A DNA stretch of 24,000 bases from an uncultured Dehalococcoidales bacterium (lineage in GTDB: Bacteria > Chloroflexota > Dehalococcoidia > Dehalococcoidales > JAUVZE01), in NCBI GenBank assembly GCA_964572285.1, contig CAZNEL010000008.1, positions 9,064 through 33,063 on the forward strand, in the 5' to 3' direction. Both the position numbers and the translations under genes were made by a program. Below the pieces are notes generated by a model. The model saw only the letters and a list, made by a program, of their open reading frames with translations. It made no database searches and had not been told where the DNA came from. Shown here in pieces: positions 3,061 to 7,978 of the stretch. Every line of letters begins with the position of its first letter. Position 1 is the stretch's first letter.

Positions 3061-4248
3061 TTGAGGTGTGCAGTGAAGTTAACGATTATAGGTTGTGGGC
3101 AGTGTGGCGGCCGGATTGCTGACGAGTTTGCCCTACTAGGCAAAGCAACACACGCTCAGCGCAAAATTGAAGCAGTTACTAACGTCTTAGCTATCAACAC
3201 AGATATTGCCGATTTGAGTGGACTATCTCATATAGGGTCCGATTACCAGCACAGGATTCTCATCGGGTCCCAGAAAACAGGGGGCCATGGTGTGGGTAAA
3301 ATGAATGAGGTGGGGGCTGAAGTCGCCAGAGAAGATGGCGACAAGGTCTTGGAAAGTGTCAGCCAAACACACCGCTTTTTTGAGACAGACGCATTCCTGG
3401 TAATTGCCGGTGCTGCCGGCGGAACCGGCTCCGGAGCTCTGCCGGTAATAACACAACTCTTAAAAGAGCGTTATATCCACAAACCGGTATATAACCTGAT
3501 AGTTCTCCCCTTTAGATATGAAGAGATGACCGAGGAAAGGTCTATTTATAATGTAGGCACCTGCCTTAAATCTTCCTACCTGATTGCCGACGCTGTATTT
3601 TTGGTTGATAATCAAAGATTTATTAAAAAAAACGTACCTATTAGTAACAACCTGGCTAAAATAAACTATCAGGTAGTTAAGCCCTTTTATAACCTGCTCT
3701 GCGCCGGAGAAGAGATAAACTCCAAATATATCGGGTCAAAGGTGCTTGATGCCGGAGACATCATACAGACTCTGGCCGGATGGTCGGTCATTGGCTATGG
3801 CGAAGTAAAGCTACCACGGATCAGGCTTCTCGGTGAAGACAAGATTCACTTTAGGGACAAAGTTTCTGGCACCCAAAAGGGAGCCCAGGCGATGGATAAA
3901 GCCATCGGCGAGTTATCGCTCAAGTGCAACGCTGCCGATGCCAGAAGAGCCCTGTATCTCCTGACAGGACCACCTGAAGAAATGAGCATGGATCTGATAA
4001 ACGAACTCTCATCCTCTTTAAAGAATATAGCTACCGAGGCTATAATACGGAGTGGTGATTATCCCAGGGATAAGGGCTTATTGAGTGTTACCGTTGTTCT
4101 ATCTGACCTTGTTAACTCAAGGAAAGTGATGGGGTATTTTACTAAAACTATCAATTATATCTCTCTTACCAGGAGAAGGCGTGGAGAGACAGAGCATGAA
4201 CACAGAGGAATTGACGAGGTTTTCAAAGACATACCCTCATTACTGTAA
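3061..4248 (+). CDS. Divergent tubulin/FtsZ-superfamily GTPase (CetZ/tubulin-like motifs with an FtsZ-like C-terminal peptide)
   Basis: Start uncertain: TTG 3061, or GTG 3073 after GAGGTG. Motifs by residue number from 3061: IGCGQCGG (10-17, T1, GQxG type); GGHGVGKMNEVGAEVARED (74-92); AGGTGSG (119-125, tubulin-signature-like); FLVDNQRF (180-187); LDAGDI (229-234, T7-like DxxD); C-terminal DEVFKDIPSLL. Confidence 0.85.
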   Translation: MRCAVKLTIIGCGQCGGRIADEFALLGKATHAQRKIEAVTNVLAINTDIADLSGLSHIGSDYQHRILIGSQKTGGHGVGKMNEVGAEVAREDGDKVLESVSQTHRFFETDAFLVIAGAAGGTGSGALPVITQLLKERYIHKPVYNLIVLPFRYEEMTEERSIYNVGTCLKSSYLIADAVFLVDNQRFIKKNVPISNNLAKINYQVVKPFYNLLCAGEEINSKYIGSKVLDAGDIIQTLAGWSVIGYGEVKLPRIRLLGEDKIHFRDKVSGTQKGAQAMDKAIGELSLKCNAADARRALYLLTGPPEEMSMDLINELSSSLKNIATEAIIRSGDYPRDKGLLSVTVVLSDLVNSRKVMGYFTKTINYISLTRRRRGETEHEHRGIDEVFKDIPSLL

Positions 4249-4298
4249 TTAACCAACCTAAAGCCATATACAAAATGCGCCAGTAAACCCGGGCTTAC

Positions 4299-4760
4299 TT
4301 ACTTTGCCTTATCACCGTGGAAAATCTTCCAGGTTTGCTCTGAAGTTTCTCTCGAAATATTCCAGGCTTGCTCTATGGCTTCCTTACGCTCCCCTAGCAC
4401 TTGCCTTACACTCTCCTGGTAAACATCCACGGCTTTTTCTCTGGCCTTCTTATATGCTTCTTCGGCTTCGAACTCAGCCTTTTGACGATCTTTCAAAGCC
4501 TGCCCCAAAGTCTCTTCGCAGATAGTATCAGCCTTCTGTTCAGCTACTTTATAAAGCTTCTCCCTTTGCCTTTCTCTTTCCCGATAAGCTGTAGCTGCCT
4601 TTCTTTGAGCTTCCACATAGGCTGTTTGAGCTATCTCAAGTTGTCCCAGAACTTCACTAAAAGGGTCAGTAATTTGCTCAGGAACCATAGTTTCCGGTTC
4701 CAAGGATTGCTCTTCTGTTTGTTTAACAGCCCTTTTTATCTGTTCCTTTTCACTGACCAT
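4299..4760 (-). CDS. Hypothetical coiled-coil protein (153 aa, charged, phasin/apolipoprotein-like composition)
   Basis: Track ORF is 4299..4811 (GTG). I prefer ATG 4760 (MVSEKEQIK...), which has GGAGGT 8 nt upstream. Highly charged A/E/K/R/Q-rich sequence predicted helical. No family recognised. Confidence 0.6.
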   Translation of the reverse strand: MVSEKEQIKRAVKQTEEQSLEPETMVPEQITDPFSEVLGQLEIAQTAYVEAQRKAATAYRERERQREKLYKVAEQKADTICEETLGQALKDRQKAEFEAEEAYKKAREKAVDVYQESVRQVLGERKEAIEQAWNISRETSEQTWKIFHGDKAK

Positions 4761-4885
4761 GAAAAAATACCTCCACAAATCCTGATTCCCAACTTTATTT
4801 ACCAGTAACACATTTTAAAACCGGTTGCTGTCCACCGCAATAGTATATGCTAATACAGCTTGTTGCCATACATACTTTTTTAAGT

Positions 4886-6631
4886 CTATTCATCCTCTTC
4901 CTCCTCTTCCTCAAAACCCCGGTCCTTATTAGACGCATACATCTTGGCCAAGTACTTCAAACGGGTATCCATCCTTCTCTTAACATCCCTGGCTTCTTTA
5001 TCTTTATTTATGTCAACCTCTGCTATGTTTAGTGATTCACCAAAGGTCCTTGCCAACGACTCGGCTTTATCCTCGAAAGCTTCATCTGCTTCCTCACAAT
5101 TGACGTCATCTACCCGGGGTATATTCATCGTGATATCGGCAGCTTGCTTGGCTATCTGTTTACCAGTTTTATCTATTTTACCAGTGCCGCCCATTAATTC
5201 CTGAAATGCCCTTACTGACATCTCTGCCGCTTCTGCAGTTGCTCTTTTGGATGCTTCAGTAGCTTCCTTGCTCGCCCTTACCGATTCTTTAGCAGCCTTC
5301 TTAGCCGATTCGCTCACCTTCTCAGCCCTACTTATTGTTTCCTGTGATGCCCTTATTGATTGTTCAGCTGCTTCCTGGGCTGATTTACTTGCTTCCTCAG
5401 CCCTGCTTATTGCTTCCTGTGATGCCTTCATCCACGCCATAGCACTCGCTGTTGTCGTCTGGCTTATTTCCTGAGCTTTAGCAATAGCGTCTTGTGATGC
5501 TTTTATTGAGATCTCAGCAGTATCGTTAGCCGCTCTTATCGATTGCTCAGTCACCTCCCGGGCTGATTTACTTGCTTCCTCAGCCCTGCTTATTGCGTCT
5601 TGTGATGCTCTTATTGATTCTGCAGCCATTTCCCTGGCTGTCTTGCCTGTCTCCTCAGCCCCACCCGCCGCTTCTTCAGCTAATCTCCTCGCTTCTTCCG
5701 CAGTTTCCTTGGCTGAGTTCCCTGCTTCCTCGGCCTTAGAGATAGCTTCCCGTGATACCCGTATTGATTCCTCAGCCATTTCCTTGGCCAGTTTTATAGA
5801 TTGTTCAGCCGCCACCCAGGCTGATTTTCCTGCCTCCTCAGCCTTTATCGCCATTTGTGCAGATACCGTTGTTGCTGCTTCAACGGCTGCTTTGGCTGAC
5901 TCACCTGCTTTCTCAGCACTAGTTATTGCTTTCTCAAAGTTTTTTTTGTATGCCTTAGCCGTCTCATCAGCCGATTTAGTTGCTTTCTCAGCCCTTCGTA
6001 CTGCTTCCTGCGATGCCTTTGTTGTTAACTCAGCCATATCTTTAGTCTGTCTGCTTGCTTCCTCAGCCCTGCTTCTAGCATCCTGTGATATTCTTATCGA
6101 TATCTCAGCTGCCTCCTTGGCAGCTATACTTGTCTTTTCAGCCCGGTTTATTGCTTCCTGTGATATTCTTATTGATTGCTCAGCTGTCTCCTTGGCAGAT
6201 TTTGCTGTTCTCTCAGCTTCATGTACTGCTTCCGCAAACGTTGAGACCAGGGCTTCAGTAATTTCTTTAGTTGATTTTATCGTCTCTTCAGCCCTGCCTA
6301 TCGCTTCCTCAAAGGTTCTCTTCAACGCCTCAGCCATCTCCTCAGCCGATTTGCATACCTCCTCGGCCTTGGCCACTGCTTCTTGCGATGTTCTCGATGC
6401 TGATTTAGCCGTCTCTTTTGCCCGTTTGCCTACCTCCTCAGCCCTGTTTATCGCCTCCTGTGATACTCTTATCGATGTCTCAGCAGCCTCCCTGGCTAAT
6501 TCACCCAGTTTCTCAGCCCTGGCTACCGTTCCCTCAAACGTTCCGGTATCGCACGCTGTGCTCTCTAGAACTTCAGAGGAGATGTTGTCTAGTGTTCCGA
6601 CCTCAGGAGATTTAACTTTTCTACTACCCAT
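4886..6631 (-). CDS. Large Ala/Glu/Ser/Lys-rich tandem-repeat protein (25-residue repeats) with acidic C-terminal tail
   Basis: 581-aa ORF. ATG 6631 has AGAGGT upstream. Residues 38-482 form about 16.5 repeats with consensus RAEEAxKSAKETAEQSIRxSQEAIx. The C-terminal 99 aa are non-repetitive and end FEEEEEEDE. Antisense ORFs exist but are Cys/Ser/Leu-rich shadows. Confidence 0.7.
   Translation of the reverse strand: MGSRKVKSPEVGTLDNISSEVLESTACDTGTFEGTVARAEKLGELAREAAETSIRVSQEAINRAEEVGKRAKETAKSASRTSQEAVAKAEEVCKSAEEMAEALKRTFEEAIGRAEETIKSTKEITEALVSTFAEAVHEAERTAKSAKETAEQSIRISQEAINRAEKTSIAAKEAAEISIRISQDARSRAEEASRQTKDMAELTTKASQEAVRRAEKATKSADETAKAYKKNFEKAITSAEKAGESAKAAVEAATTVSAQMAIKAEEAGKSAWVAAEQSIKLAKEMAEESIRVSREAISKAEEAGNSAKETAEEARRLAEEAAGGAEETGKTAREMAAESIRASQDAISRAEEASKSAREVTEQSIRAANDTAEISIKASQDAIAKAQEISQTTTASAMAWMKASQEAISRAEEASKSAQEAAEQSIRASQETISRAEKVSESAKKAAKESVRASKEATEASKRATAEAAEMSVRAFQELMGGTGKIDKTGKQIAKQAADITMNIPRVDDVNCEEADEAFEDKAESLARTFGESLNIAEVDINKDKEARDVKRRMDTRLKYLAKMYASNKDRGFEEEEEEDE
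5186..6520 (-). repeat. Degenerate 75-nt tandem coding repeat (14 units of 25 codons, 2 units of 36 codons, 1 partial)
   Basis: Counted by hand between xAE(E/K) anchors: spacings are 25 residues, except two of 36 (25+11). At DNA level, strings such as gcttcctcagccctgcttattgc..cctgtgat recur (e.g. near 5391, 5574, 6055). Confidence 0.8.
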
Positions 6632-6649
6632 AACTTTGTACCTCTGCCT

Positions 6650-6678
6650 ATTCTACAATAGGTTGTTTAGTTTATCAA
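6650..6678 (-). promoter_or_regulatory. Putative sigma70-type promoter of the repeat-protein gene
   Basis: On the minus strand: TTGATA (6678-6673), 17-nt spacer, TAGAAT (6655-6650). The predicted transcript start would leave only a very short leader before ATG 6631, which weakens the call. Confidence 0.35.
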
Positions 6679-6985
6679 TAGTCATTTCTTGGCTCAAGGT
6701 TTATGCCCACATGTATGAGTAATGCTGTGGGAAACAATCAGGCCACAATGTTAAGCACTACGGTTCACCCCACATGCACGAAGAACAATATTCATTCCCA
6801 GTTCATTAATTGGATAGGGAACTGCTGCGCTACAGAGCAAACTTAGTTAAGATACAAACTACAATAAAGAACGAGACCCATATCTGGAGGAACCATTGCC
6901 GTGGGTAATGACAACACATTTTTCAATGTCCGTCGTTTCCTACATCCTATCTCTTATTCTTCTTACTATAATTATTTGTCTGAAG

Positions 6986-7978
6986 TTAACCCATAATCAA
7001 GGACAGAATCGCCTTTTCAGTATGGAGCCGATTCTCGGCTTCATCGTAGATAACAGACATAGGACCGTCTACTACCTCGGCCGTGGCTTGCATTCCCCTT
7101 CGTAAGGGCATACAGTTCATAAAGATAGCATTCTTAGCAGCAATATCAAAATGCCTCTCATTAATACACCAGCTAGCAAACGGCTCACGTAATTTTGCAT
7201 CTTCATCTTTGTTTGAAACTGACCCCCAGTAGGTAGCTAGAATGACATCGGCATCCTCGCAGGCTTCATCAAGACTACTTGTTATCTCTATTGTCGCCCC
7301 AGACTGCTCAGCCCGCCTTTTAGCCTCGTCCATATATTTCGAGTCCAAATCAAACCCGGGCGGGTAAGCAAAAGTCAGGTGCATCCCTAAGGTAGCTCCG
7401 GCTAAAGCTGTACTGTGAGCCATTCCCGGGCTTACCCAGTGGTTATATTGTACCCAAGGAACCGCTATCTTCTTTTTCTTAAAATCAGAGCCAAGCTTTT
7501 CCATTATGGTCATGATATCTGCCATCGTTTGGCAAGGGTGCTCCTCGTCATCAAGGGCATTAACCAGCGGTATACTAGCATTATCAGCCATTAACTCTAG
7601 GGTCTGACGACACTCACCATACTTCAACGTGGGGAACGGTGCTGGCAACCGAGCGAGGCGAACTACCAACCCGTTCAGGTAGCGGGAGAAAACCTGGGCA
7701 GTATCAACCCAGTTTTCCGATAGATGGCCCTGTATCGTTTCAATACCGAAATATTGAGCATGCCCACCTAATTGAGACATCGCCGTTTCAAAAGATGCTC
7801 GCGTTCTGGTGGATGGGCTACAGAACAGCATACCTAAATTCTTACCCGCTAAAAGGGGGGTGGGTTCCCCGCTGGCCAATTTCATCTTCAAGTCAAATGC
7901 CAGATTTAGAATCGTCTCCAAGTCTTCCCTGGAATAATCCAGCAAGGTTAAGAAATCTCTGCCCTTTAGTTTATTCAT
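6986..7978 (-). CDS. Aspartate/ornithine carbamoyltransferase-superfamily protein, atypical second-substrate motifs
   Basis: SPSTRTR (carbamoyl-phosphate site) and HPCQ are present, and the C-terminal AENRLHTEKA is OTC-like. However, the OTC SMG-loop (DxxxSMG) and HCLP motifs are replaced (TYWGSVS, NCMPLRRG), and there is an insertion (RLPAPFPTLKYGECRQ). AAGGAGG SD. Last gene of the TRAP operon. Confidence 0.85.
   Translation of the reverse strand: MNKLKGRDFLTLLDYSREDLETILNLAFDLKMKLASGEPTPLLAGKNLGMLFCSPSTRTRASFETAMSQLGGHAQYFGIETIQGHLSENWVDTAQVFSRYLNGLVVRLARLPAPFPTLKYGECRQTLELMADNASIPLVNALDDEEHPCQTMADIMTIMEKLGSDFKKKKIAVPWVQYNHWVSPGMAHSTALAGATLGMHLTFAYPPGFDLDSKYMDEAKRRAEQSGATIEITSSLDEACEDADVILATYWGSVSNKDEDAKLREPFASWCINERHFDIAAKNAIFMNCMPLRRGMQATAEVVDGPMSVIYDEAENRLHTEKAILSLIMG

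Follow-up and report, generated by a model that had tools for sequence, protein, structure and literature searches.

A 25-residue-repeat helical rod encoded next to a CetZ-type gene in Dehalococcoidia, a probable accessory of a bacterial tubulin cytoskeleton

The stretch of DNA analyzed here (the window) comprises 24,000 nucleotides from an uncultured Dehalococcoidales bacterium (assembly GCA_964572285.1, contig CAZNEL010000008.1, positions 9,064 to 33,063), and the metagenome-assembled genome (MAG) that carries it is referred to as G000. The subject of this work is a gene of the minus strand that codes for a 581-residue protein, P0001, most of which is a long array of 25-residue helical repeats. 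It lies convergent with a CetZ-type gene of the tubulin/FtsZ superfamily (the CetZ of contig C8 of G000), and a small open reading frame (ORF) is placed between the two. P0001 belongs to a real, well-conserved and apparently undescribed family, in which the theme of the coiled-coil cytoskeletal rod is built on a 25-residue unit. From its sequence and its genomic company, the protein probably assists a bacterial tubulin cytoskeleton, as an accessory that has not been described.

The rod gene and the architecture of its product

The features of the locus are collected in Table 1. The product of the CetZ-type gene matched PF00091 (1e-32) and PF21011, CetZ_C (3e-19), in Pfam. Ahead of the start codon of the rod gene, at 10-14 nt, there is a Shine-Dalgarno-like AGAGG, read from the sequence as a pattern match only.

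Table 1. Features of the rod-protein locus, in window positions (residues are those of P0001; aa, amino acids; HMM, hidden Markov model; pLDDT, predicted local distance difference test)
Feature	Position	Strand	Basis
CetZ-type tubulin/FtsZ-superfamily GTPase gene, convergent with the rod gene	3061-4248	+	PF00091 and PF21011 (CetZ_C)
Small coiled-coil ORF between the rod and CetZ genes, optional third module member	4299-4811	-	phmmer homologues in the same position
Rod-protein gene P0001, 581 aa, stop codon included	4886-6631	-	ORF list and translation
Acidic tail ending the translation, residues 570-581 (DRGFEEEEEEDE)	4889-4924	-	orthologue comparison
Conserved C-terminal helix, residues 546-569, basic run then R557-L558-x-x-L561-x-x-M564-Y565	4925-4996	-	alignment and pLDDT
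End-of-rod motif (V/A)F-x-E-L-(I/M)-x-G-x-G, then linker, residues 483-545	4997-5185	-	alignment A2, pLDDT
Repeat array, residues 38-482, about 16.5 units of 25 residues (7+7+11), two of them 36	5186-6520	-	self-similarity, HMM spacing, Fourier analysis, DSSP
Non-repeat N-terminal head, residues 1-37	6521-6631	-	outside the repeat array
Candidate sigma-70-like promoter TTGATA-17-TAGAAT, 19 nt upstream of ATG	6650-6678	-	consensus scan, 10/12 matches; pattern match only

A preliminary description of this DNA had placed the 581-residue frame on the minus strand, and its translation is as claimed there; that description also named coding from the plus strand as a point to be checked. It is hardly credible that the ORF at 4886-6631 is no real gene, that is, a plus-strand coding shadow or a non-coding repeat region. 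A 359-residue ORF on the opposite strand (5643-6722) could be counted in favor of such a reading, but the minus frame is open throughout in all 12 orthologues, each of which has 2-13 stops in the antisense frame of that ORF. Moreover, the ratio of nonsynonymous to synonymous substitution in the minus frame was the lowest among the frames tested (0.26 against the orthologue of locus L004 and 0.32 against that of L009), the C-terminal motif is conserved, and at least 24 genomes have the gene, closed genomes of Dehalococcoides mccartyi among them. The non-gene reading is thereby effectively refuted, and the rod protein is under purifying selection. The plus-strand ORF, rich in Ser, Ala and Leu, is an antisense shadow that has its wobble positions in common with the true frame.

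The repeat was evaluated by several approaches. When residues 31-490 were compared with themselves (BLOSUM62, against 300 shuffles), self-similarity peaked at an offset of 25 (z = 19.8), with harmonics at 50, 75, 100 and 125 and sub-periods at 7, 11, 18 and 36. The xAE(E/K) anchors fall at residues 38, 63, 88, 113, (138), 163, 188, 213, 238, 263, 299, 324, 349, 385, 410 and 435, and an HMM of the unit recognized 15 full units, with eight spacings of 25 followed by 36, 25, 25, 61, 25 and 25. Anchors and HMM together reproduce the list of 25- and 36-residue spacings that had been counted by hand, including both 36-residue steps. The consensus proposed at that time also agrees with the logo of 88 units from 8 orthologues, R-A-E-E-v-s-K-S-A-k-E-a-A-E-a-S-i-R-a-S-Q-E-A-I-s, in which A2 is conserved in 100% of the units, A23 in 88% and A9 in 79%. 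At the DNA level, just one 75-bp pair (6062-6233, 77% identical) is still recognizable as a repeat, so the repeats are old.

In a Fourier analysis of the hydrophobicity of residues 38-482 (Kyte-Doolittle), one peak alone stood out, at 3.579 residues, close to 25/7 = 3.571, with a power of 652 against 91 for the 99th percentile of the shuffles. Therefore, one apolar stripe runs in phase across 445 residues, and each 25-residue unit corresponds to seven helical turns. On a 25/7 wheel the stripe occupies about 160 degrees of the helix surface and consists of Ala, Ser and Ile (positions 19, 12, 5, 23, 16, 9, 2, 20, 13, 6, 24 and 17), with Arg1 and Lys10 at its edges. The face opposite the stripe carries a Glu-Lys/Arg ladder, with 78 opposite-charge pairs at i/i+4 versus 27 +/- 4.6 in shuffled sequences. 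In composition the protein has 20% Ala, 17% Glu, 10% Ser and 9% Lys, a charged fraction of 35% and a net charge of about -22. Calculated from helix geometry, the rod would be some 65-70 nm long (the array about 67 nm), and from the periodicity the left-handed pitch of the stripe would be near 33 nm, against about 15 nm for heptads.

AlphaFold2, run with a 12-sequence alignment, predicted helices at 20-253 and 264-480 (DSSP) with a mean pLDDT of 50.6. Together with the Fourier peak, this upholds the helical rod in a 7+7+11 register that had been suggested from the repeat length. The break at 254-263 lies within a 36-residue insertion specific to P0001 and the orthologue of L004. Confidence was low over residues 1-24, and the stretch directly ahead of the first repeat is moderately conserved (alignment A1).

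Copy-number variation, which the preliminary description had proposed looking for, is indeed present: orthologues differ by insertions or deletions of 25, 50, 36, 22 and 11 residues, and each of these keeps the stripe in phase. Orthologous units are more similar to each other than non-orthologous ones (0.71 versus 0.45, for example), and therefore the repeats hold positional identity and have not been homogenized; Trp400 is invariant across the aligned orthologues. The top period was 25 in the full-length CetZ-linked orthologues scored, with 50 and then 25 in L014, the short C-terminal fragments of L005 and L007 being uninformative for this scoring. The orthologue of L009 contains 17 consecutive exact 25-residue steps without compensating insertions. 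The 7+7+11 unit is a clean natural case of low-twist coiled-coil periodicity, with insertions and deletions quantized to 25 or 11 residues.

Other folds were considered for the array. A hairpin of the kind formed by the cytoplasmic part of methyl-accepting chemotaxis proteins (MCP) was rejected, as the arm lengths measured from conserved aromatic landmarks change without compensation (125/108 typically, versus 75/183 in L009); the MCP structures in the PDB matched with E-values of just 0.012-0.017. A single alpha-helix (ER/K) domain would not correspond to a charged fraction of 35% and a strong, continuous apolar stripe, though salt-bridge pairs are enriched. The PDB sequence profile search gave matches to designed helical bundles only, none of them significant, and Foldseek found no match in the PDB for the rod model.

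Beyond the rod, the linker region (483-545) is weakly conserved and variable in length (alignment A2), with pLDDT values below 50-60. It is followed by the C-terminal helix, in which all 16 aligned sequences share R557, L561 and M564. The family pattern is [KR]-x-R-[LM]-x-x-L-x-x-M-[YF] on a variable linker, usually with an acidic tail after it, and P0001 conforms to this pattern. The helix reached a pLDDT of 80 in the full-length model and 95 in a fragment model. When the last 130 residues were folded alone, separate helices were obtained with a predicted template modeling score of 0.23, and therefore no globular domain is hidden in this region; as modeled, the C-terminal element is a confident helix on a tether. 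Such a tethered, conserved helix is likely a docking element. The preliminary description had pointed to the poly-Glu tail as a type that often serves for docking. An acidic tail is in fact general, being found in nearly all orthologues, but its sequence, the Glu run included, is not conserved, and the invariant part is the preceding helix R557-Y565. Membrane targeting by this helix was considered unlikely, since acidic stretches flank it in many orthologues (as in SRLEELEQMFSELEQ).

Distribution of the family and its pairing with CetZ

Pfam, NCBIfam, the PDB sequence profile and Foldseek gave nothing significant for P0001, in accordance with the initial impression that the 25-mer belongs to no described family, and no description of the rod protein was found in the searchable literature. 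Word-index homology searches returned low-complexity candidates or no matches. An exhaustive phmmer search against 1.84 billion representative proteins yielded 76 matches at E <= 0.001, mostly short ones, which are probably fragments from short contigs. Among 401 sampled Dehalococcoidia genomes, 33 matched the rod profile and 85 matched CetZ_C; 31 of the 33 genomes with the rod profile also have CetZ_C. A profile of the C-terminal domain, searched in a phylum-wide sample, found 15 genomes, all of the class Dehalococcoidia, plus one stop-ridden spurious match. Among the genomes sampled, the 25-mer rod is confined to Dehalococcoidia.

The CetZ protein of the window was searched against one genome per species, and 17 loci were obtained, all labeled Dehalococcoidia except one 2.5-kb contig binned as Bathyarchaeota. 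In 15 of the 17 a homologue of P0001 is present, convergent with the CetZ gene and immediately downstream of it; the two loci without a rod homologue have the most divergent CetZs (52-56% identity). No other gene of the window recurs in the related CetZ loci, so the CetZ-rod pair persists where its surroundings change. By coordinates, both genes lie within about 2 kb of each other in 24 of the sampled genomes, which represent at least nine families of Dehalococcoidia; the sampled genomes are related, so the pairing counts serve as description and not as a statistical test. In the CetZ tree, the 19 sequences that have a rod gene next to theirs group in a single clade (support 100/98). Outside this clade are the three other CetZ paralogues of G000, which have no rod partner, and the DnaX-linked paralogues. 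In D. mccartyi, a 441-residue rod is encoded beside a 382-residue protein annotated as tubulin/FtsZ family or CetZ, a CetZ of the AII58091/AAW39674 cluster.

Some further aspects of these loci can be mentioned. The four CetZ paralogues of G000 lie on contigs C8, C16, C40 and C48; three of them end in K-D-I-P-[ST]-L-[LI] and that of C40 in the variant KGVPSLLRLV, endings that resemble a docking peptide of the FtsZ type. The partner-linked CetZs have a Phe five residues ahead of I-P-S-L-L (F-[KR]-D-I-P-S-L-L in most, F-K-D-I-PSLL in the window copy), where the other paralogues have G, S or A. The 2.5-kb contig (L005, QMXQ01000207.1, from a 'Candidatus Bathyarchaeota' bin) carries a CetZ 73% identical to that of the window, together with the small ORF and the beginning of the rod gene. 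Since its CetZ nests inside the Dehalococcoidia clade, the contig is probably bacterial and mis-binned. At L024 (G198:C4, 953-6709), the module of CetZ, small ORF and rod stands beside a second CetZ of the DnaX-linked type, so that the rod gene has a CetZ gene on either side. A like arrangement is suggested by the coordinates in G227, G254, G377 and G389.

Proposed role and alternative explanations

An all-helical rod gene is kept beside one particular CetZ-type gene, and it is for this reason that we regard its product as a probable accessory of the tubulin cytoskeleton. The preliminary description had offered a ruler, a scaffold, a filament or a membrane coat. A fixed-length ruler is unlikely, because the CetZ-linked members that have the C-terminal motif vary in length between 441 and 900 residues; the pairing with one CetZ clade narrows the rest of the list to a tubulin-cytoskeleton accessory. 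In our reading, to which we give a probability of roughly 0.6, P0001 would associate with itself as a low-twist coiled-coil rod and serve to scaffold, bundle or anchor the filaments of CetZ. The protein would be a cytoplasmic structural component with the shape of an extended alpha-helical rod, and its Ala/Ser/Ile stripe could drive self-association into a low-twist coiled coil of two or more strands. As a dedicated accessory to one CetZ-type clade of Dehalococcoidia, the rod might gather CetZ filaments into bundles, keep them spaced or fix them beneath the membrane, in cells without peptidoglycan and MreB, and the C-terminal helix might dock onto CetZ, onto another component of the module or onto the next rod. 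In G000, FtsZ-FtsA are present for division; no match to a penicillin-binding-protein transpeptidase and no MreB were found in this MAG, which is 90% complete.

Several observations weigh against this proposal. The AlphaFold confidence of the rod is low (mean pLDDT 50.6), as is customary for isolated long helices. The convergent orientation means that the CetZ and rod genes do not form one operon. No CetZ lies within 6 kb of the gene for P0005, a distant homologue from locus L001, and a 1613-residue relative with a period of 25 (L025, G053:C114, 3873-8714, minus strand) has neither the C-terminal motif nor a CetZ neighbor. A 25-residue helix spans about 3.75 nm, which is less than the subunit repeat of tubulin-family protofilaments, roughly 4.0-4.4 nm, so a simple lattice with one repeat per subunit misfits. 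Finally, the proteome paper on D. mccartyi BTF08 reported btf_0551, a tubulin-like protein, and btf_0548, a hypothetical protein from nearby; judging by its position, btf_0551 would be the DnaX-linked CetZ paralogue and not the partner of the rod.

The spacing argument bears on a more specific arrangement, drawn by analogy with tropomyosin, nebulin and the proteins that line microtubules, in which the rod would lie along CetZ protofilaments or sheets, with its repeats contacting successive subunits, 11-residue insertions adjusting the register and the C-terminal helix capping or anchoring the assembly. We consider this arrangement doubtful, and its simplest form, one 25-mer per CetZ subunit, is not supported: the unit of ~3.75 nm is too short for 4.0-4.4 nm, and the orthologue of L009 has no insertions that would compensate. 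If such a lining did exist, it would be the first periodic filament-lining protein of a prokaryotic tubulin, and the length of the rod would set or stabilize the length of the filament in a wall-less bacterium. The proteins tropomyosin, nebulin and stathmin offer a likeness here, as they lie along cytoskeletal polymers and are periodic and helical, with conserved surface motifs on their repeats; in the rod family, orthologous repeats keep their individual identity. Unlike the rod, they are eukaryotic and bind actin (stathmin, tubulin dimers), and the ~3.75 nm of the 25-mer does not match tubulin-family spacing. The analogy with stathmin leads to a regulator whose helix would bind several unpolymerized or curved CetZ subunits side by side and so control polymerization. 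The CetZ linkage would speak for it as much as for a scaffold, and polar motifs (S-Q-E-A-I-x-R-A-E-E) are conserved beyond the needs of a plain coiled-coil surface; nevertheless, an apolar stripe continuous over 445 residues points to helix-helix packing, and the repeat number varies about two-fold among orthologues, which makes a regulator of this type improbable.

An autonomous filament or lamina, formed without nucleotide in the manner of the intermediate filament (IF)-like proteins crescentin, FilP and Scy, would share a process with CetZ and not bind it directly. Like Scy and FilP of Streptomyces and crescentin of Caulobacter, P0001 is a long cytoplasmic helical rod with a phased heptad/hendecad repeat, short non-repeat ends and a cell-shape context, and a period of 3.579 residues over 445 residues is the long coiled-coil rod expected of an IF-like protein. 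The rod is non-heptad and has head and tail segments, its conserved N- and C-terminal elements could serve for head-to-tail overlap, and the convergent, non-operonic arrangement with CetZ would be natural for such a protein. The unit differs, however: it has 25 residues (7+7+11, 3.57 residues per turn), against the 51-residue non-heptad repeat that Walshaw and colleagues reportedly described for Scy and FilP in 2010. The core of the rod is mostly Ala and Ser, and its gene is coupled to a tubulin-family gene, while theirs are not. No homology to crescentin, FilP or Scy, or to known IF-like proteins in general, was detected (no Pfam, NCBIfam or PDB match over threshold). The tight, clade-specific linkage amid variable flanks exceeds what would be expected of a merely co-functioning pair, and we find an autonomous filament former unlikely.

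The composition of the protein also recalls the group 3 LEA proteins and exchangeable apolipoproteins, with their 11- and 22-mers: amphipathic repeats rich in Ala, Glu, Lys and Ser, hendecads, and an apolar face bordered by basic residues. Along this line, P0001 could be an amphipathic membrane or surface coat, disordered in solution and folding onto membranes, which it would protect or shape, with an incidental or indirect linkage to CetZ. The broad small-residue face edged by Arg1 and Lys10 resembles class-A amphipathic helices, and a paralogue in L004 has a C-terminal transmembrane-like segment. There were also weak matches to ApoLp-III (E 0.023, 15 bits versus a cut-off of 36, in the D. 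mccartyi homologue only) and to Phasin_2 (E 2.1, sub-threshold). With E-values between 0.02 and 2, these matches are far under the cut-offs of Pfam, and the LEA_4 and apolipoprotein profiles stayed below theirs. The primary period is 25 and not 11 or 22, the Ala/Ser face is very weakly hydrophobic, and the net charge of about -22 and the acidic tail do not favor a coat. Its genomic context is cytoskeletal and not that of stress or lipid proteins, and the conserved pairing with CetZ would be left unexplained. A membrane coat therefore has little probability in our view.

The accessory role that we prefer has parallels in ZapA, ZapB, EzrA and SepF, in TubR and TubY with TubZ, and in BtubC with BtubA/B, where an accessory is encoded beside a tubulin-superfamily polymer or acts on it. 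These proteins share with the rod a helical or coiled-coil architecture and short conserved docking peptides on flexible linkers. The rod is far longer and strictly periodic, and its partner is of the CetZ type, not FtsZ, TubZ or BtubAB; no match to ZapA, ZapB, EzrA, SepF, TubR/Y or BtubC appeared at E <= 5 in Pfam or E <= 0.1 in NCBIfam.

With respect to CetZ itself, the neighbor in the window belongs by Pfam (PF00091 and PF21011) to the same family as CetZ1 and CetZ2 of Haloferax volcanii, and the 25-mer rod was seen only in Dehalococcoidia. To our knowledge, the direct structural partners of CetZ in archaea are poorly defined. CetZ1 governs the change from disc to rod shape in a wall-less cell (PMC13556191). 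A survey of archaeal cetZ neighborhoods lists pili, cofactor-biosynthesis and sugar-epimerase genes among the conserved neighbors and names no coiled-coil repeat partner (PMC9856176). Current papers still call CetZ archaea-specific (PMC11621097, PMC9856176), and bacterial copies received one passing mention in a phylogeny paper (PMC9871819). In the Dehalococcoidia, a bacterial CetZ clade has a candidate partner of its own, conserved and of simple physical build, whose interaction with CetZ could be tested with two recombinant proteins. Furthermore, the CetZ-rod pair is also present in cultured D. mccartyi, a disc-shaped organism without peptidoglycan, and we know of no explanation of how this organism maintains its shape.

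The third gene and other repeat proteins

The small ORF between the CetZ and rod genes has 170 residues counted from a GTG, and probably about 153 from an internal ATG; neither Pfam nor NCBIfam gave a family match. By phmmer, homologues occupy the same position in L004, L005, L009 and L012, and in L024 the slot is taken by a 186-residue coiled-coil ORF, a candidate counterpart by its position. A 158-residue paralogue (G000:C51:6382-6858, plus strand) adjoins two carbamoyltransferase-like genes, and the module of the window adjoins a carbamoyltransferase at 6986-7978. This shared context may be the result of an old segmental duplication.

Other proteins with long helical repeats were found in the searches. 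The 1613-residue relative of L025 adjoins ABC-transporter-like and HlyD-like ORFs (judged by eye). In L004, the locus of the closest relative, a 555-residue paralogue with a period of 25 (3519-5186, plus strand) lies upstream of the CetZ gene and has a hydrophobic, transmembrane-like C-terminal end (WEFLAMLILVFLGAVFAAVAISIGLMLMGG); no counterpart of it was found in G000. P0003, P0004 and P0006, from Joint Genome Institute (JGI) metagenomes, are PAS histidine kinases with a long helical repeat linker of Ala, Glu and Lys (for example AKEEAEAAKKASEEAVVR, about 18 residues), with E-values of 1e-5 to 2e-9 against P0001; this match is probably compositional or convergent and not homologous. Another protein of G000, unrelated to P0001, has 321 residues (G000:C17:10477-11442, minus strand) and presents near-perfect 40-residue repeats of Glu, Lys and Ala (offset-40 score 2.17), after which comes a C-terminal domain without repeats.

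Lastly, the 1.43-Mb MAG contains two separate FtsZ-FtsA pairs (G000:C19:2526-4909 and G000:C48:1930-4309), which reflects either a true duplication or the 3% estimated contamination.

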